A DNA stretch of 62,166 bases, the filler included. It is 3 parts of 3 records of this genome, joined end to end, with 100 filler letters (N's around TTAATTAATTAA, not from the genome) between each part and the next. Parts side by side here need not be neighbours in the genome. Positions count along the whole stretch, not along the records: positions 1 to 28,670 come from DRR723986_9854; 2 more parts are not named here. One strand, written 5' to 3'. Below the pieces are notes generated by a model. That model made no database searches and was not told the origin of the DNA. It saw nothing but the letters and a program-made list of their open reading frames with translations. Shown here in pieces: positions 1 through 46,600 of this stretch. How positions within the stretch are numbered: position 1 is the first letter of the stretch; each line of letters begins with the position of its first letter. The position numbers and the translations under genes were made by a program.

Positions 1-562
1 CGTCACCCACGACCAGGTTGAAGCCATGACCATGGCGGACCGGATCGTGGTGCTGGATCACGGTATCATCTCCCAGGTCGGTTCGCCGCTGGAGCTTTAT
101 CACAAACCGCAGAACACCTTCGTTGCCGGCTTTATCGGCAACCCCAAAATGAACTTCATCGAGGTGTCCGGAAAAAGTTCCGGTCCTGAAGGCGTTGTCG
201 TCACCTTGCCATCAGGCAAGGACCTGACAGTCAAGGTAGATGCTGCGGAAGAAGTTGCAGGACAGAGCCTTACCCTCGGCGTTCGCCCGGAACATCTGAC
301 ACTAGGCGCTGCCGATGCCTCCATAGAGATTGTTCCGACCGTCGTTGAACATCTCGGCATTCACACCGTCACCTACAGCACCGTTGCCGGTGCCAAGTCC
401 ACTTTTTGCAGCGTCTTGCCCGGATCCGCCCCGGCGAAAGTGGGTGTGCCGGTTTCCATGGGACTGAAGGGTGTGGATTGCCACCTGTTCGACGGTAACG
501 GAAACGCTTTTGACCGCCAGCTTTCGCTAGAAGAACTGGATGCTGCGGACATGCATATCTGA
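1..562 (+). CDS. Sugar ABC transporter ATP-binding protein (MalK/UgpC type), 5'-truncated
   Basis: Frame from position 2 reads [18 protein letters not shown]...[13 protein letters not shown]...LGVRPEHL, the H-loop and TOBE region of CUT1 ATPases; the N-terminus lies outside the window. Confidence 0.93.
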
Positions 563-588
563 CACTTGGCATCAGATGCCCCAAATAA

Positions 589-615
589 AAACGGCCGCCC
601 GAAAGGCGGCCGTTT
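589..615. terminator. Bidirectional rho-independent terminator
   Basis: AAACGGCCGCC-CGAAA-GGCGGCCGTTT perfect 11-bp stem between convergent genes. Confidence 0.8.
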
Positions 616-652
616 GAAATTTCGGGAAACGGCGGGCAAGCCGTCTGGAGGA

Positions 653-1720
653 CTAGACGACTTGCCCACGGGCGGCCACCGTCTCGATGCGGGTCACCAC
701 GCCGTCTCTGTGAAACACCAGGCGGTCGAAAAGGTTTGAAACGACGCACGTATGGTTGGGAATGATCCGGACCCGTTCGCCGATCTGCGGTTTTTTGCCG
801 GACTTCGTCAGGTCGACGACGGCATGCTCCTCGCTGAGCGCGGCAATGGATGCCTCCGGATAATCGATCAACAGGCCGTGGTCGGAAAAACCCAACAAAT
901 CGGACGTCAACGCTTTCGATCCCGCATCCAGAACCGCCCGGTTTTCGGTCGGCCGGGAGACGACTGTGGCCAGCACATGCATGGCGCAATCGTCAAAATC
1001 GCACATACCGGCGCGCACCATCGAGCGGTCGTTGAAGATATAGGTTCCGGCCCGGTGCTCCGTCGCGCTAGGCACAAGATCACTGTCGAACAGGCTCGGT
1101 GAACCTCCATGCGAGACGACAGGGCACTCAAGACCTGCCTGTTTCAGAAGTGACAGTGTTTCGGAAAAAAAAGCTTCAACCGCCGTTTCGGAGGATGCCT
1201 TCGGATAGGTCAGCAGACCATGGAATACCAGTCCGGGCGATGCATCGATGCGCTTGGCCAGCGCGACCGCAGCATCCGGATTTTGCACGCCGTTGCGTCC
1301 GGCCCCTGTATCGCATTCGACCAGAACCTTCAGCGGTTGATCCCCGGAAAACGCACTCGCCAGACCGTCGACGACAACTTCATTGTCGGCAACAACCTGC
1401 AGATCCACCTTGGTATTCAATAACTTCAACCTGTCGAGCCGCGATTTGCCGAGCATATTGAAGGTGATCAGGATATCGGTGAAGCCTGCGTCGGCGAACA
1501 CTTCCGCTTCGCTTATTTTCTGGCAGTTGATACCGCGTGCGCCATAGGCCAGCTGCAATGCGGCCAGCGCCGGGATCTTGTGTGTTTTGATATGAGGCCG
1601 GAAGTTCCGGCCAATACGGTCGAAATACTCCTGTGCAACCTTGATGTTCGTCTCCATGACCGTTTCATCGATCACGGCGACAGGGGTCAGAAGATCCTGC
1701 ACTGACAGCCCGACACTCAT
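653..1720 (-). CDS. PLP-dependent D-serine dehydratase / D-threonine aldolase family enzyme (fold type III)
   Basis: RPHIKTHK PLP-lysine motif, ECDTGAGRNG, GTYIFND, SEEH, IIPNHTC. Confidence 0.88.
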   Translation of the reverse strand: MSVGLSVQDLLTPVAVIDETVMETNIKVAQEYFDRIGRNFRPHIKTHKIPALAALQLAYGARGINCQKISEAEVFADAGFTDILITFNMLGKSRLDRLKLLNTKVDLQVVADNEVVVDGLASAFSGDQPLKVLVECDTGAGRNGVQNPDAAVALAKRIDASPGLVFHGLLTYPKASSETAVEAFFSETLSLLKQAGLECPVVSHGGSPSLFDSDLVPSATEHRAGTYIFNDRSMVRAGMCDFDDCAMHVLATVVSRPTENRAVLDAGSKALTSDLLGFSDHGLLIDYPEASIAALSEEHAVVDLTKSGKKPQIGERVRIIPNHTCVVSNLFDRLVFHRDGVVTRIETVAARGQVV

Positions 1721-1723
1721 CGC

Positions 1724-3241
1724 TTAGCCTCCCTTGCGGCCGGCTGTGCCGGCACTGGTATCGGTTTCATGCCCACTCGCAGTGGCTGCCTCGTTGATTG
1801 GCCAGATATCCCTCGGTGCTTTCTTGTAAGGGGTTACCCTTGGGTCGTTGGGATAGGGACGTCCGGCGGCGCAATAGAGGATCAACGGACTGATGCGGGC
1901 AAACGATTGATGAAAATGGTTCGTCGACTTGACCACCAGGATCTTCCTTTTGGTCGGATCGATACCAAAGTTGGAAAACAGGCTCGTGTCGAAGCATTGG
2001 GCGCGGGTCGAATTCAGGATCACTTCAATCCCGCCAATCCGGATCAGACTTGCGTCACCGATGGGAACGATGCTTTGGCCAAAAAACTGCTCTGCATTCC
2101 GGATGTTGCGGAGAATTTCAACTTCTGCGTCGATCGGCTCACCGGTTTCCGGTGCTGATTTAGCTCCGAACCGCAGCATCATGCGAGCCCCCTCGCCCGC
2201 TGCGTGACAGAGCTGGACGGCTACCGGGTCCCAGATTGAACCGAAGGCGATATTCTCGAGCTTGCCGGCAATGGCTTCTGCCAGCAGGACGGTCGCATCC
2301 CCGGCCGTTCCCCCACCGGGATTGTCCCACATGTCCGCGATCGTGACCGGACCACCTTCACAGGACAATGCCTTGGCGTAGGCTTCGGCTGGCGCAAGTT
2401 CAGCACTTCGCACCTTGCCACGCAGCTTGAACAGAGCCTCTCCAAGGTCACGGGCAACTTCGAACCCAAGTGCCGGATCGTTGTTTGTCACTGCCAGCAA
2501 CTTGGTCCCCATTTCGGGGACGTCGCCCGCCATGAAGCCATGGATGACCGAGAGAGACAAAAGGCCTGGCGTTTCCTGCTCCCGGCGGATCATGTCATCG
2601 ACAAACCGGCGCATAGGTTCGGATGTTGTCGGGAAGACGTCAATCATCTTGGGATCGTAAACGCTCATTACAGGTTTGACTTCGCCTGCAACCGCTTGCC
2701 CAGCAATACGCCATGCATCCTCGGCCCGATCGACGAAATCGATGTGGGGAAATTCCTTGAAGGCGATGAGCGCGTCAGCCGCGGCAACACGCTTTGCAGT
2801 CAGATGACTGTGCGGGTCGAACGTTGCAATAACAGGGACATCCGGGCCGACCACAGATCGAATTCGGCTCAGTAGATCCCCTTCCGGATCATCATACCCG
2901 TCAGCCACCATCGCACCATGCAGGCCAATGACGACAACGTCGAAAGGTCCACCTGTCACGATCTGATCCAGAATTTCGTCACGCAAGCCCTCAAAGGTCT
3001 GCCGCGAAACCAAACCGGCCGGATCTGCCCACGCCGCGGTACCTTCAACCAGTTCCCAGTCGTTTTCACAGGCAAACCGGCGCCCTACGGTAACGACCGC
3101 AGAACACAGGGTCGGGGTTTCCGGATGCTCACCCGGCCTTGCCAGCAGCGACGCCCTGAATGCGTTGATATCAATCCGGATCGGTGAAAACGTGTTGGTT
3201 TCTGTTGCCAGAGCTGCCGTAAAAGCGCGGGGCTTCGTCAT
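1724..3241 (-). CDS. M81 family (MlrC-like) metallohydrolase
   Basis: ETNTFS, LHGAM, FDPH, PHID, DNPGGG and VVKS motifs; start moved to the ATG at 3241 just downstream of the upstream gene's stop. Confidence 0.88.
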   Translation of the reverse strand: MTKPRAFTAALATETNTFSPIRIDINAFRASLLARPGEHPETPTLCSAVVTVGRRFACENDWELVEGTAAWADPAGLVSRQTFEGLRDEILDQIVTGGPFDVVVIGLHGAMVADGYDDPEGDLLSRIRSVVGPDVPVIATFDPHSHLTAKRVAAADALIAFKEFPHIDFVDRAEDAWRIAGQAVAGEVKPVMSVYDPKMIDVFPTTSEPMRRFVDDMIRREQETPGLLSLSVIHGFMAGDVPEMGTKLLAVTNNDPALGFEVARDLGEALFKLRGKVRSAELAPAEAYAKALSCEGGPVTIADMWDNPGGGTAGDATVLLAEAIAGKLENIAFGSIWDPVAVQLCHAAGEGARMMLRFGAKSAPETGEPIDAEVEILRNIRNAEQFFGQSIVPIGDASLIRIGGIEVILNSTRAQCFDTSLFSNFGIDPTKRKILVVKSTNHFHQSFARISPLILYCAAGRPYPNDPRVTPYKKAPRDIWPINEAATASGHETDTSAGTAGRKGG

Positions 3242-3243
3242 GA

Positions 3244-3747
3244 TCAGGACGCGGCTCCGAGAGGATTGGGCAAATATCCGGCAAAGCCGCAGATCTTCCA
3301 GCGCCCCTCCCTTCGGACACAGAAATAGAGCGTCTGCCACAACAAGCGATCCTCGCCGCCATCTGCTTTCCGGATGCGGCCGTCGAATTTCTTGTGCGCA
3401 ATTGCCCGGTTTCCGTTGATGTCGATCTCGGTCAGGCGGGTAGCATCGAAAATGGCGGCACGCGCGTCTTCGGCGAATTCCGTCGCTCTGAAAATTTCCG
3501 CCTGGCTCAACCAGCGTTCCTTGTAGGAGCCGAGATCCGGAAACCCGAGTTTCCAGTCGTCGGGATTAGGTACCTTTCCACCGTCTACGCCAAAAAAGGC
3601 GGGTTCGTCGAAATCATCGGCCACCTGCTCCCAGTCTGCTGCGACGAAGGCATTGATGTCCCGCATGACAAGCATGTCCCAGATCTCGGAGCGATCTTCG
3701 TCTTTTCCTGCAAATGGATTTGTTTGGCTGTCTGAAAGGGCCTGCAT
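3244..3747 (-). CDS. Conserved hypothetical protein, probable NTF2/SnoaL-like fold
   Basis: About 167 aa; RDINAFVAADW, EIDINGNRAIA and C-terminal REGRWKI resemble NTF2-like proteins. Start uncertain (3747 or 3759). Confidence 0.65.
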   Translation of the reverse strand: MQALSDSQTNPFAGKDEDRSEIWDMLVMRDINAFVAADWEQVADDFDEPAFFGVDGGKVPNPDDWKLGFPDLGSYKERWLSQAEIFRATEFAEDARAAIFDATRLTEIDINGNRAIAHKKFDGRIRKADGGEDRLLWQTLYFCVRREGRWKICGFAGYLPNPLGAAS

Positions 3748-3822
3748 ATCGGAAACCATTTTCATTTTGACGGTTGATTTTTGAAAAATATAAGGGTGAA
3801 ATAAAACCAATGTCAAACCACT

Positions 3823-3839
3823 ATGTAAATCATTTTCAT
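3823..3839. promoter_or_regulatory. Putative RpiR/HexR-type operator
   Basis: ATGTAAATCATTTTCAT imperfect palindrome in the divergent promoter region; a related copy GGAAACCATTTTCAT lies at 3751-3765. Confidence 0.5.
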
Positions 3840-3852
3840 TTTGGAGCCAAAT

Positions 3853-4239
3853 ATGTCTATCAAACGCTATGGTGCTGAAAAATCAGGTGCCGGCGGCCAG
3901 AATCTGCCCTTCGCTCGAGCCGTTGAAGCTGACGGCTGGCTTTATGTCTCCGGCCAGGTACCGATGAAGGATGGTGAGATTGTCGGCACGGGGATTGTCG
4001 AACAGACTCACCTGACCATCAAGAATGTTGTCGCGATCCTGGAAGAAGCCGGGTACGGCCTTGAACATGTTGTCCGCGTCGGTGTCTGGCTCGATGATCC
4101 GCGCGATTTCTGGTCGTTTAACGGCGTCTATAAAAGCTATTTCGGTGAATACCCACCGGCACGCGCCTGTGTCCAGTCAACCATGATGGTGGACTGCAAG
4201 GTCGAGATTGATTGCGTCGCGTACAAGAAGCCGGCCTGA
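3853..4239 (+). CDS. RidA/YjgF family enamine/imine deaminase
   Basis: LYVSGQVP, FNGVYKSYF, PPARACV (catalytic Arg), KVEIDCVA. Confidence 0.92.
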   Translation: MSIKRYGAEKSGAGGQNLPFARAVEADGWLYVSGQVPMKDGEIVGTGIVEQTHLTIKNVVAILEEAGYGLEHVVRVGVWLDDPRDFWSFNGVYKSYFGEYPPARACVQSTMMVDCKVEIDCVAYKKPA

Positions 4240-4243
4240 CCCC

Positions 4244-5110
4244 ATGCGGGATATCCTGTCCGTTCTGCAACAGATCGAGCCGGAGCTGTCCAAGTCGGAA
4301 CGGATCCTGGCTGCATTGTTGCGCAACGATGCCGAGTTCATCGTCAATGCCGGCATTACGGATGTTGCCGAACGTGCAGGTGTTTCGCCGCCGACCGTTA
4401 CCCGTTTTTGCCGTCGGCTTGGCTGTGAGAGTTACACTGCCTTCAAGGTGCAGGTTGCCCAGGTCACCTTCGCCGGAACCAGATATCTGACCGCTAATGC
4501 GGCTTCTGACGCGCCGCGCGATATTGCTGACAGTCTTCTGGCCCAGTTTCAGGATGCAGCGACCAGTACGCGCAAAGCGTTGGACATGGAGTCGGTGCTG
4601 GCAGCTGCAGATGCGATCTCGACCGCCAATCTGCTGGCAGCGTTCGGTGCGGGCGGGACGTCCTCAATGATTTCGGACGAAATGCAGAACCGGTTTTTCC
4701 GCCTGGGTCTGCGTACGGTGAGCGTGACGGATCATGCCATGCAGCTGATGCAGGCGGCCACCATGAGGACCGGCGATGTCATCATTGCGTCGTCTGTCTC
4801 TGGCCGGAACCTGCAAATGGTACGTGCGCTGGAGGCAGCGAAGACCTACGGGGCAATCGTAATCGCCCTCACCCGCCCGGGTCGGCCCGTCGCTGATCTG
4901 GCGGATATCACGATTGCCATCGATCTGCCCGAAGGTGAAAACATCCTGCGGCCAAGCACCAGCCGCTATGCCTTTCTGTTTGTGACAGATCTCTTGGCAA
5001 CGCTTGTCGCCATGCGGCGAGGCGACGAGGCTCGAGAAAACCTCAGACGCGTCAAATACCAGCTCAGCAACACGCGCGATCCGGACGACAAGGAAGCCCT
5101 CGGTGACTGA
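4244..5110 (+). CDS. RpiR/MurR family transcriptional regulator (HTH + SIS)
   Basis: LSKSE...AERAGVSPPTVTRFCRRLG HTH; SIS domain with SVSGR and IALT. Confidence 0.93.
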   Translation: MRDILSVLQQIEPELSKSERILAALLRNDAEFIVNAGITDVAERAGVSPPTVTRFCRRLGCESYTAFKVQVAQVTFAGTRYLTANAASDAPRDIADSLLAQFQDAATSTRKALDMESVLAAADAISTANLLAAFGAGGTSSMISDEMQNRFFRLGLRTVSVTDHAMQLMQAATMRTGDVIIASSVSGRNLQMVRALEAAKTYGAIVIALTRPGRPVADLADITIAIDLPEGENILRPSTSRYAFLFVTDLLATLVAMRRGDEARENLRRVKYQLSNTRDPDDKEALGD

Positions 5111-5903
5111 TCAAACTCCGAAACCCGTTGCCGTGGTAACGGGCGCAGCCGGCGACATCGGCATGGCCATTGCTGCGCAGCTGTCAGCAACCCACATCAT
5201 CGCCGCTGTCGACATCGACATGATTGCCCTCGAAGGCGCGGTGGAAAGTCTTGAAAACCACGGTGCCGATATTGCTGCGATCCAATGCGACCTGACCAAG
5301 GCTGACGACTTAGCCCGGCTTGCCAAGGAGGCTGCCAGACTGGGGCAGGTCAATACAATCATCAACAACGCGGGCGCTGCTGCGGCACTTACGTTGCATC
5401 AGATGACTGCCGAAACGCTGTCTAGGGATCTCGCTCTCAATCTGGAAGCCGCGCTCAACTGCTTCAAGGCCTTTGAACAGCCCTTGATTTCAAGCGGTGC
5501 CGGCAACCTGGTCAATATTGCCTCTGTCAACGGACTGTCCGTCTTCGGTCACCCAGCCTACAGCGCTGCAAAGGCCGGCCTGATCCATGCAACAAGGTCC
5601 ATCGCCGTCGAATATGGGAAGTATGGCCTCAGATCGAATGCCATCGCGCCTGGCACTGTTAAGACCCAGGCCTGGAAAATACGGCAGGCTGCCAATCCGG
5701 ACGTCTTTGACGAGGCCCTGTCCTGGTATCCGTTCAAATCCCTGCCTGAACCGAATGACATTGCCTCGGCCGTTTCATTCCTGATCAGTCCGGCGGCGCG
5801 TTGCATCACGGGTGTTTGCCTGCCTGTCGACAGTGGGCTCACTGCCGGGTCACCTGCCCTTGCCCGAACCTTCACTCAATCTCCCGATTTCGACGGATTT
5901 TAA
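5103..5903 (+). CDS. SDR family oxidoreductase
   Basis: TGAAGDIG, NNAG, YSAAK, NAIAPG; GTG start overlapping the rpiR stop. Confidence 0.92.
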   Translation: MTDQTPKPVAVVTGAAGDIGMAIAAQLSATHIIAAVDIDMIALEGAVESLENHGADIAAIQCDLTKADDLARLAKEAARLGQVNTIINNAGAAAALTLHQMTAETLSRDLALNLEAALNCFKAFEQPLISSGAGNLVNIASVNGLSVFGHPAYSAAKAGLIHATRSIAVEYGKYGLRSNAIAPGTVKTQAWKIRQAANPDVFDEALSWYPFKSLPEPNDIASAVSFLISPAARCITGVCLPVDSGLTAGSPALARTFTQSPDFDGF

Positions 5904-5906
5904 GTC

Positions 5907-7817
5907 ATGACCAAGTTTGTGCTCGACTGTTTCTACCGCCCTGCGGAGGATCTTGCTGCGTCTCGTCAGGAGTTTGCACTGACCAATACAAGCTCCAGGC
6001 CCCTGAAGGATTTCACGCTGGCCTACACGGCGGTCAACCGGGCCACGGCAAATGCCAAGCTTGAAAACGCAGCGAGTTTCAGCCGGATTGCGAATTTTCA
6101 CGAAATCACGCCAAACACTGGCGAAACGATCGAACCAGGCGAAACCTGGACCTTTGCCATCACCGGCCTGGCGAACGTGGCAAGACACCGGCTTGATGGT
6201 CCTAAGTCCGCCTATGTCAGCACCGGTGGCAGCGTCATCGAGGTGCTGTGCAATGATCTTGAAGCGCCGGAAGAGCTGGATAGCGGAAAACGCCGCAGCA
6301 TGCCGGCTGGACACCTTCCTGAACCGCTGCATATCGTTCCCTGGCCCCAGAAAGTGGAAGTAACGGCCTTTGCGGACGACAAGACAAGCTTCCTAGTTGC
6401 CCAGGGCTCTGCAGAGGAAAAGGCGGCGGCGGCCAAGATCAACGCGCTCGCAGCAAGGCTCTTTCCAGGAGCGCCACATCCTTTCCGGTTTACTCAATCG
6501 CATCATCAAATCGCGATTGAGTTCCAGCAGGACGATAGCCTTGCAGCTGACGGTTACCGGCTCGAATTTGACCAAGCGAAAGCAGCCTTGCGCTACAGCG
6601 GCTCCGTCGGCCGTGACTATGGCCTGACTGTACTCGCCCAGATGGCTTACGGCACCTATGAGGCACCTGGTACATTCAAGTTTCCTGCACAGGGCGTGAT
6701 AGAAGACGCCCCAAGGTTTTCCTGGCGTGGAACTCATCTGGATGTGTCACGACATTTCCGTGGCCCCAAAGACATCATGCGCCTGCTCGACATTCTCGCC
6801 TGGGGTCGGATGAACGTCTTCCAATGGCATCTGACAGACGATGAAGGCTGGCGACTTGAAATCAAGGCCTATCCCGAACTGACCGTGGGCGGTGCACGGC
6901 GTGGCCCTGGTTGCCAGCAGGTGCCCCAGCTCGGCTTTGCCGCTGAAGTCTACGAAGGGGCCTATTCGCAGGAAGAAGTTCGCGAGATTGTTGCTCATGC
7001 CACCAGCCTGAACATAGACATCCTGCCGGAAATCGATGTTCCGGGGCATTCGACCGCCGTTTTGAAGACCTACCCGCGCTTCGCCGATCAGGCGGAGACC
7101 CCGGAGAGCTATCATTCCATTCAGGGCTATCCGAACAACGCACTGAACCCGGCGATGGATGAAACCTACGAGTTTCTGGAAAAGGTCTTTGCGGAAGTTG
7201 CAAGCCTGTTTCCGTTCGACTTCATCCACATCGGCGGCGACGAAGTCGACGTCAATTCATGGCTTGCCTCGCCGAAGACCCAACGCCTCATGGAGGAAAA
7301 GGGTCATGCGGATACAATGGAAGTGCAAGCCTATTTCATGGGCCGCGTGCGCGACATCCTGAGAAAACTCAACCGGAAACTTGCCGGCTGGGACGAAGTC
7401 TCACACGGTGGCGGCATCGACCCGGATGGCGTGCTTCTGATGGCCTGGCAAAGACAGGAAGTCACCAAGGACCTGATCGATCAGGGCTACAACGTCATCT
7501 GTACCCCGGGACAGCACTATTACATGGATATGGTCCAGGCGTCCGGCTGGCATGAGCCGGGTGCGGGTTGGGCCGGCGTTTCGACACCGGAAGACTGTTA
7601 TGGCTATGAGGCAGCTGCCGGTCTCAGCACCGGCAGTGAAGAGCGCCTCAAGGGGGTGCAGGCCTGCATCTGGTGCGAGCACATGACCGACAACGTCATC
7701 TTCAACCATATGGTCTTTCCGCGGCTTTATGCGGTCGCTGAAGCCGGCTGGACCGCCCCCGCCAGCAAGGCCTGGCTGCGATTTGCAGCACAGGCCCCCT
7801 TCTTCCCCCAACTTTGA
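5907..7817 (+). CDS. GH20 beta-N-acetylhexosaminidase, no signal peptide
   Basis: DAPRFSWRG, HLTDDEGWR, PEIDVPGH, catalytic HIGGDEV, WCE, FPR. Confidence 0.95.
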   Translation: MTKFVLDCFYRPAEDLAASRQEFALTNTSSRPLKDFTLAYTAVNRATANAKLENAASFSRIANFHEITPNTGETIEPGETWTFAITGLANVARHRLDGPKSAYVSTGGSVIEVLCNDLEAPEELDSGKRRSMPAGHLPEPLHIVPWPQKVEVTAFADDKTSFLVAQGSAEEKAAAAKINALAARLFPGAPHPFRFTQSHHQIAIEFQQDDSLAADGYRLEFDQAKAALRYSGSVGRDYGLTVLAQMAYGTYEAPGTFKFPAQGVIEDAPRFSWRGTHLDVSRHFRGPKDIMRLLDILAWGRMNVFQWHLTDDEGWRLEIKAYPELTVGGARRGPGCQQVPQLGFAAEVYEGAYSQEEVREIVAHATSLNIDILPEIDVPGHSTAVLKTYPRFADQAETPESYHSIQGYPNNALNPAMDETYEFLEKVFAEVASLFPFDFIHIGGDEVDVNSWLASPKTQRLMEEKGHADTMEVQAYFMGRVRDILRKLNRKLAGWDEVSHGGGIDPDGVLLMAWQRQEVTKDLIDQGYNVICTPGQHYYMDMVQASGWHEPGAGWAGVSTPEDCYGYEAAAGLSTGSEERLKGVQACIWCEHMTDNVIFNHMVFPRLYAVAEAGWTAPASKAWLRFAAQAPFFPQL

Positions 7818-7837
7818 ATGCGTGACGAGGCAGGAAG

Positions 7838-9274
7838 ATGAAAATTGCAGTTGGCGGCATTCATACCGAATGCAGTACCTATTCACCGGTCCAGCAAACC
7901 GCATCAGACTTCACGGTCACCCGTGGCAAGGACTTGGTGGCACAGGCAGGCGTCGACGGCGGCAGATTTCCTGACGTCACCTTTTGTCCATTGTTTCACG
8001 CCAGATCCATTCCGGGCGGACCGGTGTCTGCGGACTGCTATGCGAGCTTCAAGTCTGCCTTTCTTGCCGAACTTGAAGCCGAGAAGCCATGCGACGGTGT
8101 TCTATTGATTATGCATGGCGCCATGCATGTGATCGGTCTGAGCGATGCGGAAGGGGACTGGATCTCTGCCGTTCGCCAACTTGTCGGGCCGCAAGTGCCA
8201 ATCGCTGTCAGTTACGATCTGCACGGCAATGTCACGCAAACCATTGTCGATCAGATCGACATCTTCTGTGCTTATCGCACTGCCCCTCATATCGACGTGA
8301 CCGAAACCCACCGACGTGCCGCGGCAAATCTTGTCAACCAATTGGGTGGCGGTCCCAAGAGATACGTGGCCTGGGCTCCCGTGCCGGTTCTCCTACCCGG
8401 GGAACGAACCAGCACGGAAGATGAACCGGTAAAATCGCTTTATGCAACGTTGCCGGTATTCGATCAGCGATCCGGGGTGACCGATGCCAATCTGATGGTG
8501 GGGTATGTCTGGGCTGATACGGCAAGAGCCACCGCGGCTGCCGTGGTGACGGGAACAGACCTGGATGCCATTCAACAGGCGGCTTCCAAAATTGCTGCGC
8601 AGTACTGGTCCGCAAGGCAAGACTTCGAGTTTGGTGTCCCCACGAAGCCACTCGAACTGTGCCTGGACGATGCTGCAACAGAAAGCTCGTCTCCCCTCAT
8701 CCTTGCCGACAGTGGCGACAATCCGACAGGTGGTGGGGTTGGTGACAGATCTGATGTCCTGGCGGCCTGGTTGGAACGAGGCTTGACTGGAGGTGTATTT
8801 GCAGGGATCGCTGATCCGGTTTCGGTCGATAAACTCTGGGCATTGCCAGACGGCTCTTCTTCCCGCCTCACAATTGGCGGTGCCCTGGGCAGCGATTGCA
8901 AGGTCGTTAGCACGGAAGCTGTCTTGCTGTCTAAACTAGGCAGAGAACAGGATCATAATCGGGAAGTGTTGACCAGGATCGCAGGTAATTTGGTGATCCT
9001 GACGGAACACAGACGCCCCTTCCATCAACTGGAGGATTTTAGGCGTTTTGCCATTGAACCGTCCACTGCAAGGTTCTTGATCGTGAAATCCGGATACCTG
9101 TCGCCAGAGCTGGCCCCAATCGCCAATCCCGCCCGCATGGCCCTCACGGATGGTGCGGTTAACCAGGACATTGAGGCGCTCACAAACCAACACCGCCCTG
9201 TGCCGAGCTACCCTTTTCAGCGGGCCTTCGATTGGAAACCGGTTACAAGTCTATCTCGCAGGGCGTCCTCTTGA
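7838..9274 (+). CDS. M81 family (MlrC-like) metallohydrolase, second paralogue
   Basis: GGIHTECSTYS, MHGAM, YDLH, APHID, DNPTGGG, VKSGY. Confidence 0.88.
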   Translation: MKIAVGGIHTECSTYSPVQQTASDFTVTRGKDLVAQAGVDGGRFPDVTFCPLFHARSIPGGPVSADCYASFKSAFLAELEAEKPCDGVLLIMHGAMHVIGLSDAEGDWISAVRQLVGPQVPIAVSYDLHGNVTQTIVDQIDIFCAYRTAPHIDVTETHRRAAANLVNQLGGGPKRYVAWAPVPVLLPGERTSTEDEPVKSLYATLPVFDQRSGVTDANLMVGYVWADTARATAAAVVTGTDLDAIQQAASKIAAQYWSARQDFEFGVPTKPLELCLDDAATESSSPLILADSGDNPTGGGVGDRSDVLAAWLERGLTGGVFAGIADPVSVDKLWALPDGSSSRLTIGGALGSDCKVVSTEAVLLSKLGREQDHNREVLTRIAGNLVILTEHRRPFHQLEDFRRFAIEPSTARFLIVKSGYLSPELAPIANPARMALTDGAVNQDIEALTNQHRPVPSYPFQRAFDWKPVTSLSRRASS

Positions 9275-9490
9275 GTATTGCGCGCTCTTTCGAGCGGCAT
9301 GAGTAACTGACGAATCCAGCCGACTATAAGAGATGCATTGCTTACCAAGCGCGTCCTGAATGCACGGATAATTGGCATTTTGCTTGCAAATACAAGCACT
9401 CGCAAAGTTTTATTTCTATTATTTTCAGTACCGAATTTAAAATCGGTCATTCGCCTGCATTTGCATTTCTCAAATCAATCATAGTCTTAC

Positions 9491-9751
9491 ATGGGATCTT
9501 GAGCTCAGCAGCGCGCGCTCAAACACACCAATTGTAATTTTTACCAAGGTTGAATGTGAATGGTCGGTCAGTATCAATTTATGGGACGATCGAAACCCAG
9601 CCTTCAGGACCTGCCCCGATCTGCAGATCCAACGGCAAACTAAAACGGCCTGATTGCTGCAAGGATTTGATCTGTAGGGAGATTTGCACGTACCCCATCA
9701 ACTGTGCCGATCCCATAAAGCTCCGCCGGACCTTTGCCGGTGGAGCTTTTT
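9491..9751. ncRNA. Candidate structured small RNA
   Basis: Non-coding region with end-pairing ATGGGATC/GATCCCAT, an internal interrupted hairpin and a strong terminator; no family recognised. Confidence 0.3.
9717..9751. terminator. Rho-independent terminator not adjacent to any CDS end
   Basis: AAAGCTCCGCCGG-ACCTTTG-CCGGTGGAGCTTTTT, a 13-bp stem with one G-U pair and a U tract. Confidence 0.75.
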
Positions 9752-11079: not shown

Positions 11080-12378
11080 ATGCGGATTGCCGTAATCGGC
11101 TCCGGAATTTCCGGAAACAGTGCAGCCTGGGCCCTTAATGATCTTCATGACGTTGTTCTCTACGAGCGGCGCGAACGGCCAGGTGGTCACAGCGCCACGG
11201 CGGATATCGACTATGATGGCGCCCGGATTTCGGTGGACACCGGTTTCATCGTCTACAACGAGCTCAACTACCCGAATTTTACTGCGCTGCTTGACCATCT
11301 GGGGGTCGCCAACGAGATAAGCGACATGAGTTTTGCCTTGTCGGCGGACAACGGCAAGCTTGAATGGTCAGGCCATTCTCTGAACGCGGTCTTCGCACAA
11401 CGGCGTAATCTGGTCTCACCGCGGTTCCTGCGCATGTTGCGGGATATCTTCCGCTTCAATGGCAAAGCCGTTGAAGATCTGAAGGCCGGACGCCTCAGCG
11501 GGCAAACGCTCGGTGGCTACCTGGAGCGTGAACACTACTCTTCCGGTTTCATAAACGACTATCTGCTGGCGATGGGCGCTGCCATCTGGTCGACACCGAT
11601 CAACGAAATGCGGGACTATCCTGCGGAAAGCTTCGTGGCTTTCTTTGAAAATCATCGCCTGCTTTCATTCGATCGGCCGCTGTGGCGCACCATTTCCGGT
11701 GGCAGCCGCAACTACGTGGAAAAGCTGCTGGCGCCACTTCAGGGAAAGATCAGGCTTGGCAAGCCGGTCACAGAAGTTCTCCGGCAAAACGGGCAGGTCA
11801 TCGTGCGCGACGCATCCGGCCACCAGGACGTTTTCGATCATGTGATCCTTGCCAGCCACACGGACCAGACCCTTGCCATGTTGGGTGATCCCTCCCCACA
11901 GGAGCGCGATATTCTTGGATCCATCCGGTATCGTCCAAACGAAGTTTACCTTCACCGCGACGAGGCCCTGATGCCGAAACGCAAAAACGTCTGGGCTTCC
12001 TGGAATTACATGTCCGATCGCGAAGCCGGCGAAACACGGGACGTAACCGTCAGCTACTGGATGAACCGGTTGCAGAACTTCGATCACTCCAAACCGGTCT
12101 TCGTTACATTGAACCCCTATGCACCACCTCAGGAAGACAAGACCTTCGCAAAGTATGTTTATGATCATCCCCAGTTTGATGCCATGGCTCAGCAGGCCAA
12201 GAACCGGCTTGGGGAAATTCAAGGCGTGAACAACACCTGGTATTGTGGTGCGTGGCGCGGTCACGGCTTCCACGAAGATGGACTTTCGTCCGGGCTTGAT
12301 GTTGCCCGTTCGCTGGGTGCCCGTCTGCCATGGGAAAAAGACACGGCTGTCGATACCTATCTGGAGGCTGCCGAATGA
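11080..12378 (+). CDS. FAD-dependent oxidoreductase (RSP1091/UfaD-like fatty acid desaturase)
   Basis: IAVIGSGISG, VDTGFIVYN, WASWNY, GFHEDG; first gene of the FAD oxidoreductase-DUF1365-cfa triad. Confidence 0.88.
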   Translation: MRIAVIGSGISGNSAAWALNDLHDVVLYERRERPGGHSATADIDYDGARISVDTGFIVYNELNYPNFTALLDHLGVANEISDMSFALSADNGKLEWSGHSLNAVFAQRRNLVSPRFLRMLRDIFRFNGKAVEDLKAGRLSGQTLGGYLEREHYSSGFINDYLLAMGAAIWSTPINEMRDYPAESFVAFFENHRLLSFDRPLWRTISGGSRNYVEKLLAPLQGKIRLGKPVTEVLRQNGQVIVRDASGHQDVFDHVILASHTDQTLAMLGDPSPQERDILGSIRYRPNEVYLHRDEALMPKRKNVWASWNYMSDREAGETRDVTVSYWMNRLQNFDHSKPVFVTLNPYAPPQEDKTFAKYVYDHPQFDAMAQQAKNRLGEIQGVNNTWYCGAWRGHGFHEDGLSSGLDVARSLGARLPWEKDTAVDTYLEAAE

Positions 12379-13226
12379 AGGCAAGGCCGAGCAATTGCAT
12401 GCATGACAATGGACCGCCCCCCGATCCGGCGGCATCCTTGTTCATGGGCTCGGTCATGCATCACCGCATGAAACCCCGTGAGCACAGGTTTTCCTATAAG
12501 GTCTTTTCCGTGCTGCTCGATCTGGATCGGCTTGAAGAAGCTGCGCAGTCCAGCCTGTTCTTCTCCGTCAACCGGTTCAATTTGCTGTCGTTTCATCAGA
12601 AGGACCACGGCCCCAGGGACGGGTCTGATTTGCGGCTCCATGTCGACCGATTGCTCGCCAAGGAAGGACTAGAGGCACCTGCTCGGGTCCTTCTGCTCGC
12701 ATATCCGCGGATGCTGGGGTACGGCTTCAACCCTCTCAGCGTTTATTATGCCTATGACCGGTCGAACCAACTGATTGCGCTCGTTTACGAGGTGCGCAAC
12801 ACATTTGGGGGCATCCACACCTACGTAGCACCTGTCAAAGCCGACCAGTGCAGTGATGCAGGTATACGCCAAGATCAGAAGAAGCTGTTCTACGTGTCGC
12901 CCTTCGTCAGCATGGAACAACACTATTTCTTCCGCATGATGCCGCCGGGAAAAACCGTCCGCGTTCGCATTCTGGAAAAGGATTGCGAAGGCCCGCTTTT
13001 GTCGGCGACATTTTCCGGCACACAACACCCCCTGTCCAACGGCTCGATTCTACAGGCCTGCCTTCAGGTGCCGCTGCTGACGTTCAAGGTCATCGGCGCC
13101 ATCCATTGGGAAGCCTTTAAAATCTGGCGCAAGCGTGTACCATTTCACGCTCGACCCGCAGAAGATGCAGGGAATGACGGGTTGCCTGGGCAGACAGGTT
13201 CTGTCTTGCCAGTTTCAAACAACTGA
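12375..13226 (+). CDS. DUF1365 family protein (RSP1090/UfaO-like)
   Basis: VMHHR..P.EH.F.Y, GFNPLS, EVRNTFG, KLFYVSPF, IHWEA; ATGA overlap with the upstream stop. Confidence 0.88.
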   Translation: MKARPSNCMHDNGPPPDPAASLFMGSVMHHRMKPREHRFSYKVFSVLLDLDRLEEAAQSSLFFSVNRFNLLSFHQKDHGPRDGSDLRLHVDRLLAKEGLEAPARVLLLAYPRMLGYGFNPLSVYYAYDRSNQLIALVYEVRNTFGGIHTYVAPVKADQCSDAGIRQDQKKLFYVSPFVSMEQHYFFRMMPPGKTVRVRILEKDCEGPLLSATFSGTQHPLSNGSILQACLQVPLLTFKVIGAIHWEAFKIWRKRVPFHARPAEDAGNDGLPGQTGSVLPVSNN

Positions 13227-13245
13227 CGTTTCAAGAGGTTCTGCT

Positions 13246-14475
13246 ATGAGTGAGCCGATTGTTCTGACCAAGGAAAACTTCCGCGCGGAGTTGAAGGGTA
13301 CTCCACGCCTCGCCAAAATGGCGGCCGGCCTTGCCCTCAAAATCCGCTACGGGTCTCTTGAAGTTCAATTTCCAGACGGTCGAAGATTCCATATCAAAGG
13401 GCAGGAAGATGGCCCACACGGTGTTCTCAAGATCCATAACTGGGCGTTTTTCCGGATGGTCGTCCAAGCAGGCGACGTTGGTGTCGGAGAAGCCTTCATG
13501 GCGGGGTACTGGTCGTCGCCCGACGTGACCACATTTCTGGAAGTCTTCTGCATAAACCAGGAATCGACGCTGGAAGCTCTCCAAGGGAAACCGTTTACAC
13601 GTTTTCTGATGTCGGTACGCCACTGGCTGAACTCCAACACCAAACGCGGGTCGAAGCGTAACATCTCGGCGCACTATGACCTCGGAAATGCATTTTACCG
13701 GGAGTGGCTGGATCCTTCGATGACCTATTCCTCGGCGATCTACAGCAACGAAACCAACAATCTGGAACAGGCCCAAACCGAGAAATATGCTTCTCTGGTC
13801 CGGCAGACGGGCATTACTCCCGATCACAAGGTTCTGGAAATCGGGTGTGGCTGGGGCGGTTTTGCCGAATATGTCGCAAAATCGGTTGGTGCCAACGTGC
13901 GAGCATTGACCATCTCGCAGGAACAATTCGATTACGCGCGCGAGCGGATCTACAAGGCCGGCCTCAACGACAAGGTTGAAGTGGTCTTCCAAGACTATCG
14001 CGACGAAAATGGCGTGTTCGACAGGATAGCCTCCATCGAAATGTTCGAGGCCGTCGGTGAAAAATACTGGCCGACCTACTTCCGCCAATTGTCGAAGTGC
14101 CTGAAGCCGGGTGGCAAGGCGGGCCTGCAGATCATCACGATCCAGGACAAGATGTTCGAGGACTACCGCAGAGGCACAGACTTCATCCAGCGCTATATCT
14201 TTCCAGGTGGAATGCTGCCGCCGCCCGGTCGTCTGGCGGAAATCGGCAAGTCACTGGGCCTGGACCTTATGGATCAGAAGATCTTCGGCCAGGACTACGC
14301 AAGAACGCTTGCAGAATGGCGGCAGAGCTTCCGACAAGCCTGGCCAAGGATCAGTCCGCTGGGTTTTGACGAGCGCTTCAAGCGCCTCTGGGAGTTCTAC
14401 CTGCATTATTGCGAGGCAGGCTTCCGGTCCGGCAATATCGATGTTCGCCAGATGGTCTACGTCAAATCTGCCTGA
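13246..14475 (+). CDS. cfa: Cyclopropane-fatty-acyl-phospholipid synthase family SAM methyltransferase (CfaS/UfaM-like)
   Basis: NISAHYDLGN, MTYSSA, LEIGCGWGG, SIEMFEAVG, YIFPGG, YCEAGF. Confidence 0.93.
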   Translation: MSEPIVLTKENFRAELKGTPRLAKMAAGLALKIRYGSLEVQFPDGRRFHIKGQEDGPHGVLKIHNWAFFRMVVQAGDVGVGEAFMAGYWSSPDVTTFLEVFCINQESTLEALQGKPFTRFLMSVRHWLNSNTKRGSKRNISAHYDLGNAFYREWLDPSMTYSSAIYSNETNNLEQAQTEKYASLVRQTGITPDHKVLEIGCGWGGFAEYVAKSVGANVRALTISQEQFDYARERIYKAGLNDKVEVVFQDYRDENGVFDRIASIEMFEAVGEKYWPTYFRQLSKCLKPGGKAGLQIITIQDKMFEDYRRGTDFIQRYIFPGGMLPPPGRLAEIGKSLGLDLMDQKIFGQDYARTLAEWRQSFRQAWPRISPLGFDERFKRLWEFYLHYCEAGFRSGNIDVRQMVYVKSA

Positions 14476-45873: not shown

Positions 45874-45897
45874 GGCCAGAAGGAACAGGAGGCGGCA

Positions 45898-46599: not shown

Positions 46600-46600
46600 C

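Follow-up and report, generated by a model that had tools for sequence, protein, structure and literature searches.

A Roseibium locus of two tightly packed divergent operons (intergenic gaps of 2–4 nt) is, on the basis of family membership, motifs and gene context, about as likely as not to encode an oxidative, non-phosphorylating route that would operate in the cytoplasm under RpiR control and degrade an N-acetylhexosamine (GlcNAc, GalNAc or both) together with its beta-glycosides. The leftward (−) operon comprises ORF190 (NTF2-like)-MlrC1-PLP dehydratase and the rightward (+) operon RidA-RpiR-SDR-GH20-MlrC2. Families were assigned by Pfam and NCBIfam profile searches of proteins from the window (i.e., the whole 62-kb stretch of DNA analyzed). 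All genes named in the initial annotation (GH20, SDR, two M81, PLP, RidA, RpiR, NTF2-like and ABC ATPase) were present where it had placed them, as judged from Pfam matches or a structure model:

2..562, + strand, MalK-type ABC ATPase, C-terminal part (Pfam OB_MalK, TOBE_2)
653..1720, − strand, fold-type III PLP enzyme (Pfam Ala_racemase_N and D-ser_dehydrat)
1724..3241, − strand, MlrC1, M81 metallohydrolase of 505 aa (Pfam DUF1485 and MlrC_C)
3244..3765, − strand, ORF190, NTF2-like, about 161–173 aa (AlphaFold model and Foldseek)
3753..3837, no strand, divergent promoter region with candidate RpiR operator pair (paired GAAAA-NN-RTTT)
3853..4239, + strand, RidA-family imine/enamine deaminase (Pfam Ribonuc_L-PSP, 95.5 bits)
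4208..5110, + strand, MurR/RpiR-family regulator (Pfam HTH_6 and SIS)
about 5103..5903, + strand, classical SDR oxidoreductase (Pfam adh_short)
5907..7817, + strand, GH20 beta-N-acetylhexosaminidase (Pfam Glyco_hydro_20, 354 bits, and Glyco_hydro_20b)
7838..9274, + strand, MlrC2, second M81 metallohydrolase (Pfam M81)

In the proposed route, a glycoside or free sugar would enter through the adjoining sugar ABC importer (an MFS carrier in other genera) and N-acetylhexosamine would be freed by GH20. The SDR would oxidize C1 to form a lactone, and ORF190 would contribute to this oxidation or immediately afterwards, perhaps as the protein that opens the lactone to N-acetyl-hexosaminate, a placement suggested by co-occurrence alone. 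The acetyl group would be removed by MlrC1, an M81 zinc hydrolase. Its substrate would be an N-acyl-D-alpha-amino acid whose carboxylate is free, and the bond would be of the type that MlrC hydrolyzes when it separates Adda from D-Glu in microcystin. The fold-III PLP enzyme would then eliminate the C3 hydroxyl and RidA would hydrolyze the enamine/imine to 2-keto-3-deoxy-gluconate or -galactonate and ammonia, with the route completed by kinases and aldolases from other parts of the genome. Points against this reading are that the neighboring GFO oxidoreductase and MlrC2 are used in none of these steps, and that kinase and aldolase genes lie outside the locus both in Roseibium and in 80 related loci.

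Enzymes of the locus

The best PDB match of MlrC1, the proposed N-acetyl-hexosaminate de-N-acetylase, was microcystinase C (7ylq, E 1e-102), i.e., MlrC of Sphingomonadaceae (MEROPS M81). Like that enzyme, the window M81 proteins are of two-domain DUF1485 and MlrC_C architecture and predicted to be cytoplasmic amide hydrolases with an identical set of five zinc-center residues; the amine that leaves in the MlrC reaction is a D-alpha-amino acid. In MlrC1, these residues (E14, H108, D142, H144 and H166) were unchanged across 11 orthologues and matched the published MlrC center (E56/H150/D184/H186/H208) at a constant offset. In contrast with microcystinase, however, the window M81 proteins scored far below the NCBIfam cut-off (362.5 and 120.7 versus 999), none of mlrA, mlrB and mlrD lies near them, and their context is that of sugar-acid catabolism. 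MlrC2, which is 26% identical to MlrC1 (BLASTP), retains the metal-center residues H, D-x-H and H, with the Glu of an N-terminal HTECS seen by inspection. It may be another de-N-acylase that handles either a different epimer or the glycoside. To our knowledge, the only characterized M81 activity is peptide-bond hydrolysis, which counts against the oxidative route. A physiological role for widespread MlrC homologues, as claimed in the initial annotation, was not upheld: M81 proteins of 44–48% identity occupy other contexts, mostly next to peptide-type ABC importers, and the de-N-acetylase role cannot be generalized to the M81 family.

The PLP enzyme appears to be of the D-serine/D-threo-3-hydroxyaspartate (D-THA) dehydratase type and is proposed to act as a 2-amino-2-deoxy-aldonate (glucosaminate or galactosaminate) dehydratase/ammonia-lyase. 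Its fold-III PLP fold is shared with the DSD1-type D-serine and D-THA dehydratases (3wqc, 3anu), and its NHTC motif aligned with the HAC motif found in D-THA dehydratase 3wqc rather than with the HVD motif of aldolases 4v15 and 7dib. The His-x-Cys of the window enzyme falls at the position of the dehydratase depositors' H351A and C353A mutants, although its substrate is probably an amino-aldonate rather than D-Ser or hydroxyaspartate. Since PNHxC was kept in 53 of 53 orthologues whereas solved D-threonine aldolases carry HxD, the enzyme was assigned to the dehydratase type. Thus, an aldolase identity was rejected even though D-threonine aldolase was the best overall sequence match, the aldolases carrying His-x-Asp and the window protein His-x-Cys. 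A BhcC identity was likewise rejected (182 bits versus an NCBIfam cut-off of 690). A true BhcC sits elsewhere in G001, a genome 98% identical to the window across positions 1–9400, and no other fold-III homologue was found there at E≤1e-25.

The SDR is proposed to be an NAD(P)+-dependent N-acetylhexosamine 1-dehydrogenase. Its score against NCBIfam PRK07074, a generic model, was below cut-off (334.9 versus 361 bits), which counts against the oxidative route, and its best PDB match was the uncharacterized 5tt0; its start codon is uncertain, the ORF opening at 5004. ORF190, which has candidate start codons at 3765, 3759 and 3747 and a stop codon 2 nt ahead of the MlrC1 start, was given no role in the initial annotation and was without match in Pfam and NCBIfam searches. 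Its AlphaFold model (pLDDT 93.6) matched NTF2-like, SgcJ, limonene epoxide hydrolase and ketosteroid-isomerase-like structures in Foldseek, and the label NTF2-like holds because these matches to NTF2-like/SnoaL-like structures were at probability 1.0 and TM 0.45–0.65. No recognized lactonase was found in the locus, which counts against the oxidative route, and no amidohydrolase in the window (Pfam, NCBIfam); in one metagenome-assembled locus (L021), a phosphotriesterase-family lactonase-like gene takes the usual place of ORF190 and RpiR. The best PDB match of GH20 was the beta-N-acetylglucosaminidase Nag2 (6ezr, E 3e-100). No N-terminal signal-like hydrophobic stretch was noted by eye in translations of the locus enzymes. 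RidA, the most conserved locus gene (66–96% identity among related loci), opens at TTG 3841 and probably starts at ATG 3853, behind GGAG; its score of 95.4 against TIGR00004, just under the cut-off of 106.25, also counts against the oxidative route.

Promoter and upstream nag region

The RpiR regulator (likely start ATG 4244; nearest NCBIfam model HexR, 186 bits versus a cut-off of 296) is paired with a candidate operator, comprising two copies of GAAAA-NN-RTTT at 3753–3763 and 3827–3837, 74 bp apart. Among 61 orthologous intergenic regions, the same sequences from which the motif was derived, 56 had a site pair at 70–74 bp spacing, while two or more sites occurred in 0% of shuffled sequences and only three sites in the whole window. 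No such motif was found in the 18-kb upstream nag/ABC region of G001, so that the sugar ABC importer is probably under separate control.

In G001, the ABC ATPase gene that the window edge truncates closes an operon of the order ROK kinase-CutC-GFO oxidoreductase-two permeases-SBP-ATPase, preceded by a MurQ-like etherase and then by divergent GntR-NagB-II-NagA, the NagA passing TIGR00221 (263.9 versus 225.65). The absence of nagA, nagB and nagK noted in the initial annotation was confirmed for the 62-kb window by tblastn with G001 proteins, but as an argument it is an artifact of the window edge, since the G001 nag genes lie about 5.5–10.7 kb upstream of window base 1. In G001, a canonical NagK-NagA-NagB route (GntR, ABC importer) is encoded directly upstream, the ABC importer region being common to it and the locus. 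In contrast with the proposed route, this one phosphorylates first and never oxidizes C1, and it adjoins the M81 locus in a minority of cases (nagA in 8 of 80 loci).

Relation to known oxidative pathways

According to its description (PMC9537276), the ong cluster of Pseudoalteromonas prydzensis ACAM 620 encodes OngA (GH20), OngB, OngC, OngD (RidA), OngR (RpiR), KdgK and OngIT. As described there, a fold-III PLP deaminase makes KDG from glucosaminate, RidA is essential, OngB is D-aminoacylase-like, the carrier is of SSS type and the regulator is a MurR/RpiR repressor. The cluster handles oxidized chitin (GlcNAc1A), and the structure of OngB is the subject of a separate paper (PMC12017989). Four gene families (GH20, MurR/RpiR, fold-III PLP and RidA) are common to ong and the window locus at family level, and the proposed chemistry is the same, i.e., de-N-acetylation of an N-acetyl-amino-aldonate followed by PLP elimination to a 2-keto-3-deoxy acid. 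Unlike ong, the window locus has two M81 hydrolases in place of D-aminoacylase-fold OngB, a GH20 without the signal-like N-terminus expected of periplasmic OngA, and no kinase or aldolase genes, although window-related loci carry KDG/KDGal kinases where ong has KdgK. It also adds an SDR and an NTF2-like protein, so that the acid would be made inside the cell. Uptake in window-type loci is by ABC, MFS or TRAP systems rather than by SSS and TonB receptors, and the hosts are Alphaproteobacteria, whereas complete Ong pathways are reported solely from Gammaproteobacteria and a single Betaproteobacterium (PMC9537276).

The De Ley-Doudoroff galactose pathway (dehydrogenase, lactonase, dehydratase, DgoK, DgoA) follows a similar logic of C1 oxidation, lactone opening and elimination to 2-keto-3-deoxy-galactonate for DgoK/DgoA, except that in the proposed route elimination would be replaced by de-N-acetylation and PLP deamination because C2 bears an acetamido group. 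DgoK and DgoA adjoin M81 and dehydratase genes in L089, a relative at class level, arranged as RpiR <> DctQMP-M81-dehydratase-DgoK-KDPGal aldolase-PfkB kinase (Pfam DGOK, 265.7 bits; KDPGal aldolase, 255.5 versus a cut-off of 207). G001 itself carries two KdgK-like genes, Eda, and a DgoK adjoining a second aldolase. The oxidative pathway of the initial annotation thus gains contextual support from the M81 at the place of OngB in an ong-like module and from the dehydratase-type motif, as does its KDG product from related loci with KDG/KDGal kinases and KDPGal aldolase beside M81/dehydratase.

Conservation, importers and rival readings

Among 80 loci with MlrC1 orthologues (61–91% identity) from Roseibium, Sinorhizobium/Ensifer, Rhizobium, Devosia and others, ORF190 was present in 75, RpiR in 72, RidA in 69, SDR in 67, GH20 in 65, dehydratase in 53 and MlrC2 in 44 cases; these counts overstate independence because the loci are related to one another. 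The lack of a dehydratase within 10 kb in 27 loci and of MlrC2 in 36 counts against the oxidative route. The same gene order recurs in most of these loci from other genera, so the genes are not grouped by chance. It is nevertheless conceivable, if very improbable, that unrelated functions were juxtaposed and merely co-inherited in Rhizobiales, as the mostly single order of related loci and the coming and going of parts (dehydratase, MlrC2) might suggest. This would not explain the gaps of only 2–4 nt, the paired promoter motif kept across genera, or the fact that an M81-dehydratase-RidA-RpiR core is found again in a different order, with three types of importer, and in further families (L088 and L127, both with KdgK-like kinases).

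An M81 orthologue was present in 32 of 401 Rhodobacterales genomes, and 30 of these loci (two remaining unclassified) fell into three types, all 30 with RpiR. Sugar ABC/MFS-type loci (n=9) contained dehydratase, SDR and ORF190 in all nine and GH20 in eight. In TRAP-type loci (n=16), where the core lies behind carboxylate importers and adjoins 2-keto-3-deoxy-sugar-acid kinases or aldolases, dehydratase, RidA and RpiR were present in all 16, a PfkB kinase in eight, GH20 in four, and SDR and ORF190 in none. SDR and ORF190 were also absent from all five Dpp-type (peptide/opine-type) loci, two of which lacked the dehydratase; these importers and this gap count against the oxidative route. Thus, SDR and ORF190 accompanied neutral-sugar-type importers only (9/9 versus 0/21 for TRAP or Dpp), as expected of a sugar 1-dehydrogenase, which lends contextual support to the sugar-oxidizing SDR of the initial annotation.

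The TRAP-type loci clearly import an acid, and the locus may, though this is rather unlikely, import already oxidized amino sugars, i.e., chitobionic acid or GlcNAc1A from LPMOs or oligosaccharide oxidases of other organisms. GH20 would then split GlcNAc-GlcNAc1A like OngA, sending GlcNAc to the neighboring NagK/NagA/NagB and GlcNAc1A to M81, dehydratase and RidA, with another role for the SDR, e.g., on a 2-keto-3-deoxy acid. Such import agrees with the function demonstrated for OngA/B/C (PMC9537276), with GH20 in four of the TRAP-type loci, and with canonical nag and MurQ-like genes adjoining the importer in G001, which would be a scavenger because it has no LPMO_10 or GH18 match. It leaves unexplained, however, the restriction of SDR and ORF190 to neutral-sugar importers and a compact core in R. 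leguminosarum (MFS-SDR-RpiR-RidA <> hyp-M81-PLP) that lacks an adjoining GH20, and is at odds with the rarity of nearby nagA and with the lack of the candidate operator in the nag/ABC region.

The Dpp-type importers in 5 of the 30 classified loci, together with the peptide-type ABC importers beside M81 relatives of 44–48% identity, agree instead with a peptidase or amidase activity of the M81 proteins toward a glycopeptide or N-acyl-D-amino acid, candidate substrates being muropeptides and an N-acyl-D-serine/threonine conjugate. Freed D-serine or D-threonine would then be deaminated by the PLP enzyme and RidA, and the sugar genes would serve only to take off a GlcNAc cap. This reading, which is improbable, is in keeping with amide hydrolysis to a D-amino acid as the known M81 activity and with the MurQ-like etherase upstream in G001. 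Deamination of D-Ser and D-Thr by OngC-type enzymes, as reported for the ong system (PMC9537276), also agrees with it. It is opposed by the tight linkage of SDR and GH20, by RpiR/SIS regulators typical of sugar-phosphate or sugar-acid control, by sugar-acid kinases or aldolases adjoining 8 of 16 TRAP loci as well as L088, L127 and L164, and by MurQ near only 9 of the 80 loci.

The substrate of the oxidative route may be GalNAc instead of GlcNAc. In Sinorhizobium meliloti 1021, the locus (pSymB 892,614–907,965) has no dehydratase gene inside; a detached dehydratase, 49% identical, lies at pSymB 773,184–774,221 beside a RidA gene (75% identical to that of the window) and the amino-acid-type ABC genes smb21135-38, which are reported to be inducible by D-galactosamine (PMC4961836). 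Deletions dB181 (870,505–1,129,758) and dB180 (635,940–869,642) each abolish growth on N-acetyl-D-galactosamine (PMC4961836), and the locus falls in one and the detached dehydratase in the other, which lends the oxidative route comparative support. The authors explain this phenotype by a GalN-6-P/tagatose route encoded by other genes in the same deletions (PMC4961836), and the deletions span about 230–260 kb; both points count against the oxidative route.

The M81 genes of G001 are two in number, both within the locus. In functional terms, the proposed route would correspond to the Ong pathway of Pseudoalteromonas, except that its deacetylase would be non-orthologous and an oxidizing front end would precede it. 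The cluster is conserved in marine and soil Alphaproteobacteria, where an M81 hydrolase would replace a different enzyme of the known marine pathway.

Gene layout and conservation of the locus

Every gene that the initial annotation had listed at 653-9274 was confirmed from the ORF listing and from Pfam and NCBIfam searches, as follows.

653-1720, minus strand: fold-III PLP enzyme, here called the dehydratase (Ala_racemase_N and D-ser_dehydrat)
1724-3241, minus strand: MlrC1, an M81 protein (DUF1485 and MlrC_C)
3244-3765, minus strand: ORF190, no family match in Pfam or NCBIfam, NTF2-like fold in a model
3853-4239, plus strand: RidA (Pfam Ribonuc_L-PSP)
4208-5110 as ORF, likely start 4244, plus strand: RpiR/SIS regulator (HTH_6 and SIS)
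about 5103-5903, start uncertain, plus strand: SDR (SDR family)
5907-7817, plus strand: GH20 hexosaminidase (GH20)
7838-9274, plus strand: MlrC2, the second M81 protein (M81)

Successive genes of the locus were spaced 2-4 nt apart and the start of the SDR gene probably overlaps the end of the RpiR gene; the arrangement is therefore that of two divergent operons. Inspection of the GH20 translation revealed no signal-like stretch at the N-terminus. The score of RidA was above the Pfam PF01042 cut-off (95.5 vs 27.3) and just under that of TIGR00004 (95.4 bits, cut-off 106.25). The high-confidence model of ORF190 (pLDDT 93.6) was recognised by Foldseek as an NTF2-like alpha+beta cone and matched 303 PDB chains at E<=0.001, the top matches being SgcJ, SgcE6, NTF2-like unknowns and limonene epoxide hydrolase. 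Judged from this model, ORF190 is a member of the NTF2-like superfamily.

The locus had been read initially as an oxidative pathway in which GH20 releases GlcNAc, the SDR oxidises it to GlcNAc1A, an MlrC protein deacetylates the acid and the PLP enzyme with RidA yields KDG. This interpretation appears plausible on comparative sequence evidence, which backs its central steps for one M81 clade only, and the substrate may be GalNAc as much as GlcNAc. The NAD+-dependent C1 oxidation of GlcNAc or GalNAc is the reaction of N-acetylhexosamine 1-dehydrogenase (EC 1.1.1.240), and a literature search by enzyme name found no relevant paper. From its family membership and co-occurrence, the SDR is proposed as this enzyme.

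Conservation of the locus was evident when an MlrC1 alignment was used to search species-representative genomes. Of the 562 relatives retrieved, the 80 best loci, with 61-91% identity, were analysed. The closest MlrC1 homologues carry names of Roseibium (Stappiaceae), to which the organism is assigned on this basis. Neighbours were scored within the flanks, which were incomplete in 15 of the 80 loci, by tblastn with proteins from the window and from G001, a genome 98% identical over window positions 1-9400.

Genes found near MlrC1 relatives (loci out of the best 80 of 562)
ORF190: 75
RpiR: 72
RidA: 69
SDR: 67
GH20: 65
ABC ATPase: 64
GFO/IDH/MocA oxidoreductase (GFO): 63
Binding protein: 61
Dehydratase: 53
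MlrC2: 44
ROK: 16
nagA: 8
nagB: 6

The same gene order was noted in Roseibium, Sinorhizobium, Rhizobium, Pararhizobium, Devosia and Pelagibacterium, and a compact form, MFS-SDR-RpiR-RidA <> hypothetical-M81-'D-TA family PLP enzyme', on plasmid pSK02 of R. leguminosarum. In one metagenome-assembled locus (L021), a lactonase-like gene of the phosphotriesterase family (8636-9670, minus strand) occupied the place of ORF190 and RpiR; this family includes lactonases. An apparent ORF190-MlrC1 fusion in another locus (L044) was due to a run of masked bases.

The motif GAAAA-NN-RTTT was present twice in the divergent promoter region (3753-3763 and 3827-3837, 74 bp apart), in which no clear palindrome was found. 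Among 61 orthologous intergenic regions, 56 contained this pair with a spacing of 70-74 bp, even in genera with otherwise different intergenic sequence; the motif had been derived from the same sequences in which it was counted. Two sites never appeared in shuffled sequences, only three sites were present in the whole 62-kb window and the 18-kb nag/ABC region of G001 contained none. The pair is a candidate RpiR operator pair.

Several gene sets were noted elsewhere in the window. Subunits of an A/V-type ATPase were present at 41647-49179 by Pfam (B-like, 41647-43014; I-like, 43358-45427; A-like, 47344-49179), which is unusual as an addition to the F-type ATPase that an alphaproteobacterium would be expected to have. 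The region 51846-62128, which encodes a FlhC-type flagellar master regulator (283.8 bits) followed by MotA, MotB, a CheV-like protein, CheY, CheA, an MCP and FlhB, looks like a second flagellar and chemotaxis gene set of the enterobacterial/lateral type in a Roseibium. A globin-coupled chemoreceptor, in which a protoglobin domain is fused to an MCP signalling domain, was encoded at 23619-24959 on the minus strand, and a conserved, poorly understood trio (an amine-oxidase-like flavoprotein, a DUF1365 protein and a cyclopropane-fatty-acid-synthase-like methyltransferase) lay in a row at 11080-14475.

Catalytic sites and comparison with the ong cluster

To our knowledge, the sole characterised member of M81 breaks down a cyanotoxin. 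The microcystin Glu at the bond cleaved by MlrC is D-Glu with a free alpha-carboxylate; MlrC thus cleaves a bond of N-acyl-D-amino-acid type, like that of an N-acetyl-2-amino-2-deoxy-aldonate. MlrC1 and MlrC2, although only 26% identical to each other, both exceeded the Pfam cut-offs for DUF1485 and MlrC_C and thus belong to M81. Microcystinase MlrC itself (NF041767) was rejected for both, their scores of 362.5 and 120.7 bits, respectively, being far under the cut-off of 999, and Pfam revealed no mlrA (CAAX-type protease), mlrB (serine hydrolase) or mlrD (PTR2 carrier) among the ORFs of the window. Residues Glu14, His108, Asp142, His144 and His166 of MlrC1 were invariant among 11 orthologues and map, by a constant offset rather than by residue-level alignment, to the Glu56/His150/Asp184/His186/His208 centre of MlrC (PMC12474180). 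The Glu/His/Asp/His/His centre was also retained in MlrC2, as seen from alignment and, for Glu, from inspection. The M81 family is large, with 7,477 relatives at E<=1e-20 among 8,000 candidates scored, and a literature search found no paper tying M81/MlrC to amino-sugar acids.

The closest PDB matches of the PLP enzyme were D-threonine aldolases. At the C-terminal site of fold-III enzymes, where the His-x-Asp or His-x-Cys residues are presumably metal ligands, the window enzyme carries His-Thr-Cys whereas aldolases 4v15 and 7dib carry His-x-Asp; D-threo-3-hydroxyaspartate dehydratase carries His-Ala-Cys, residues that are mutated in entries 3wqg and 4pb3. PNHxC was present in all 53 extracted orthologues of the window enzyme. 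D-threonine aldolase was rejected on the absence of the His-x-Asp site, and the His-x-Cys site suggests that the enzyme catalyses an elimination, in agreement with the presence of RidA in the locus. Identity with BhcC (NF045642) was also rejected (182.2 bits vs a cut-off of 690); the genuine BhcC of G001 (766.8 bits) is encoded elsewhere, inside bhcA-B-C-D-R. In that region of G001 (L145, G001:C1:1495800-1513000), the beta-hydroxyaspartate cycle cluster is complete (bhcR <> bhcA-bhcB-bhcC-bhcD), all of its genes scoring over NCBIfam cut-offs.

The proposed pathway is a variant of the known Ong-type pathway. According to PMC9537276 and PMC12017989, the ong cluster of Pseudoalteromonas, which serves the use of oxidised chitin (GlcNAc1A), encodes a periplasmic GH20 (OngA) and a GlcNAc1A deacetylase of D-aminoacylase fold (OngB). 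PMC9537276 adds a fold-III PLP deaminase that leads to KDG (OngC), an essential RidA without known role (OngD), a MurR/RpiR repressor (OngR), KdgK and an SSS importer. The cluster has four gene families in common with the window; unlike it, the window locus lacks OngB, KdgK and the SSS carrier and has, in their place or beyond them, two M81 genes, the SDR and the NTF2-like protein. Pfam and NCBIfam revealed no amidohydrolase-family gene of OngB type at 653-9274, and Pfam and tblastn revealed no PfkB or SSS gene adjoining the locus in the window. The best Amidohydro_3 protein of G001 is encoded elsewhere, its PDB matches being uncharacterised hydrolases only.

As with OngD and OngR, RidA and a MurR/RpiR regulator share one locus (69 and 72, respectively, of the best 80 of 562 loci), and the window PLP enzyme, of the fold-III family and with a dehydratase-type HxC motif, may be a counterpart of OngC. 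Twenty loci around distant fold-III homologues from other classes included 12 that were scanned by Pfam, none with an ong-like gene set; in Pseudoalteromonas xiamenensis, the matching gene stood alone and was repeated at the end of the record. An amidohydrolase beside the dehydratase in L095 was rejected as an OngB-like partner since it scored as 8-oxoguanine deaminase (703 bits vs a cut-off of 532). No description of such a pathway, or of N-acetylhexosaminate or galactosaminate catabolism in Alphaproteobacteria, was found in a literature search.

Genomic contexts of the M81-dehydratase pair

When 401 genomes sampled across the phylum were searched with the PLP enzyme, matches at E<=1e-25 were present in 73, among them the unpublished G384, which enters no other result. 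The matches fell into two clearly separated groups, 28 genomes having at least 46% identity and all others no more than 39%. The upper group was sampled as 16 neighbourhoods, with 11 of the 28 genomes left out (those named around them being G001, G252, G169, G069, G366, G065, G085, G390, G097, G185, G324 and G297, minus the sampled ones). MlrC1-type M81, RidA and RpiR occurred together in five of the 16 (L088, L089, L090, L096 and L101). The order in L089 was RpiR <> DctQ-DctM-DctP-M81-dehydratase-DgoK-aldolase-PfkB kinase, in which the aldolase scores above the cut-off of the KDPGal-aldolase model and Pfam gives a strong match to DGOK, and that in L088 was KdgK-like kinase-RpiR-RidA <> DctQMP-M81-dehydratase. 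M81 was absent from the other 11 neighbourhoods; those annotated included amino-acid-type ABC with RidA and IclR, and an M20 hydrolase with an amidase.

With MlrC1 as query at E<=1e-60, an M81 match was found in 72 of 401 genomes of the Alphaproteobacteria, and identities formed a continuum from 63% to about 30%. Among 20 neighbourhoods, sampled from roughly 29 places at >=43% identity, an adjacent dehydratase with RidA and RpiR was noted only in L124 (62%) and L127 (51%; Dpp-type ABC-M81-dehydratase, then RidA-RpiR-PfkB), the two highest-scoring contexts. In L138, a 46%-identical dehydratase homologue lay about 7 kb from M81 without RidA or RpiR. A KDPG-aldolase-like neighbour was present in two of the 20. 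M81 genes 52% identical to MlrC1 in L125 (G737) and L126 (G616) adjoin KDPG-aldolase-like and carboxymuconolactone-decarboxylase-family genes; this context, which differs from the locus, had no dehydratase, RidA or RpiR near M81.

M81 genes at 44-48% identity mostly adjoined ABC importers of peptide type, frequently as tandem copies, and the function is therefore assigned to the MlrC1-type clade only. An extension of this role to the widespread MlrC homologues in general, as suggested initially, was not supported.

With the M81 of L089 as query, orthologues were found at E<=1e-140 in 32 of 401 genomes of the Rhodobacterales, and all 32 neighbourhoods were examined. Sixteen were of TRAP type, five of Dpp type, nine of sugar ABC/MFS type and two unclassified, with none of the surveyed genes. 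Since these loci are interrelated and were classed by their transporters, the counts describe the set and do not amount to a test.

Genes in the classified Rhodobacterales loci, by transporter type
Dehydratase: TRAP 16/16, Dpp 3/5, sugar ABC/MFS 9/9
RidA: TRAP 16/16, Dpp 4/5, sugar ABC/MFS 8/9
RpiR: TRAP 16/16, Dpp 5/5, sugar ABC/MFS 9/9
PfkB kinase: TRAP 8/16, Dpp 1/5, sugar ABC/MFS 0/9
DgoK/DgoA: TRAP 1/16, Dpp 0/5, sugar ABC/MFS 0/9
GH20: TRAP 4/16, Dpp 0/5, sugar ABC/MFS 8/9
SDR: TRAP 0/16, Dpp 0/5, sugar ABC/MFS 9/9
ORF190: TRAP 0/16, Dpp 0/5, sugar ABC/MFS 9/9
MFS: TRAP 0/16, Dpp 0/5, sugar ABC/MFS 8/9

TRAP systems of DctP type import carboxylates. On the simplest interpretation, a sugar acid is what the core module breaks down; where a neutral sugar or glycoside enters instead, and only there, the acid would have to be made by the SDR and the NTF2-like protein.

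The nag genes, the S. meliloti locus and the possible substrate

All genome-level statements rest on G001. In this genome, the ATPase gene that is truncated at the window start stands at the end of an operon of ROK kinase, CutC, GFO, two permeases, binding protein and ATPase, upstream of which are a MurQ-like etherase and a divergent GntR-NagB-II-NagA group. NagA and MurQ exceeded NCBIfam cut-offs; NagB-II and a NagK-like kinase were best matches under cut-off. The lack of a canonical nag route near the locus, a premise of the initial annotation, was so an artefact of the window edge, and the proposed pathway would stand beside the canonical GlcNAc route, not in its place. The pairing of CutC with GFO inside the ROK kinase-ABC importer operon (L005 11152-13064) was noted separately. 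GFO stays with the importer in 63 of the best 80 of 562 loci, and its nearest solved relatives, matched over the N-terminal half only, were 8qc3/8qc2, YjhC (6o15) and 6z3b, which we take to be enzymes that use NAD transiently.

On pSymB of S. meliloti 1021, the locus extends from GFO at 892,614 through MFS at 907,965, with MlrC1 at 899,157-900,593, and contains no dehydratase gene. A detached dehydratase (49% identical; 773,184-774,221) adjoins RidA (75% identical to that of the window), an IclR regulator and an amino-acid-type ABC importer, with smb21135 as the binding protein of amino-acid type, and a sugar ABC/kinase operon lies next to this unit. In PMC4961836, the hexosaminidase of the locus is smb21160 in the metabolic model, D-galactosamine induces smb21135-38, and growth on N-acetyl-D-galactosamine is lost with either of the deletions dB181 (870,505-1,129,758) and dB180 (635,940-869,642), the Biolog value being 0 vs 5. 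The M81/SDR/GH20 locus is missing in one deletion and the separate dehydratase-RidA unit in the other, a result that the proposed pathway would predict; both deletions are very large. The authors of PMC4961836 explain it by a GalN-6-P/tagatose route. Fitness data in bioRxiv 10.1101/2024.04.15.589591 identify SM_b21217 as a glucosamine kinase. Since GalNAc growth is lost upon deletion of either half, the main substrate may be GalNAc; this is a lead and not a proof.

G001 encodes two KdgK-like kinases, an Eda over cut-off and a DgoK adjoining a second aldolase, and its only two M81 genes are those of this locus. No match to LPMO_10 or GH18 was found in G001 (99% completeness); thus, the organism would take soluble amino-sugar products and not attack chitin.

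Our overall reading is tentative, and we regard it as possible rather than probable. The MlrC1-type M81 clade (roughly >=50% identity) would be an alphaproteobacterial N-acetyl-hexosaminate de-N-acetylase, non-orthologous to OngB, which, alongside an N-acetylhexosamine 1-dehydrogenase of the SDR family and a helper of NTF2-like fold (possibly a lactone hydrolase), would complete a non-phosphorylating, De Ley-Doudoroff-like route for GalNAc and GlcNAc, account for the unexplained GalNAc growth conferred by S. meliloti pSymB and supply genes for the orphan EC 1.1.1.240. If true, a physiological substrate would anchor the annotation of one M81 clade, candidate genes would be at hand for N-acetylhexosamine oxidation in the cytoplasm, and rhizobia, which are without the enteric Aga pathway, would have a GalNAc route. 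Non-chitinolytic marine and rhizosphere bacteria, with neither LPMO nor GH18, would then use oxidised or unoxidised amino-sugar fragments freed by others.
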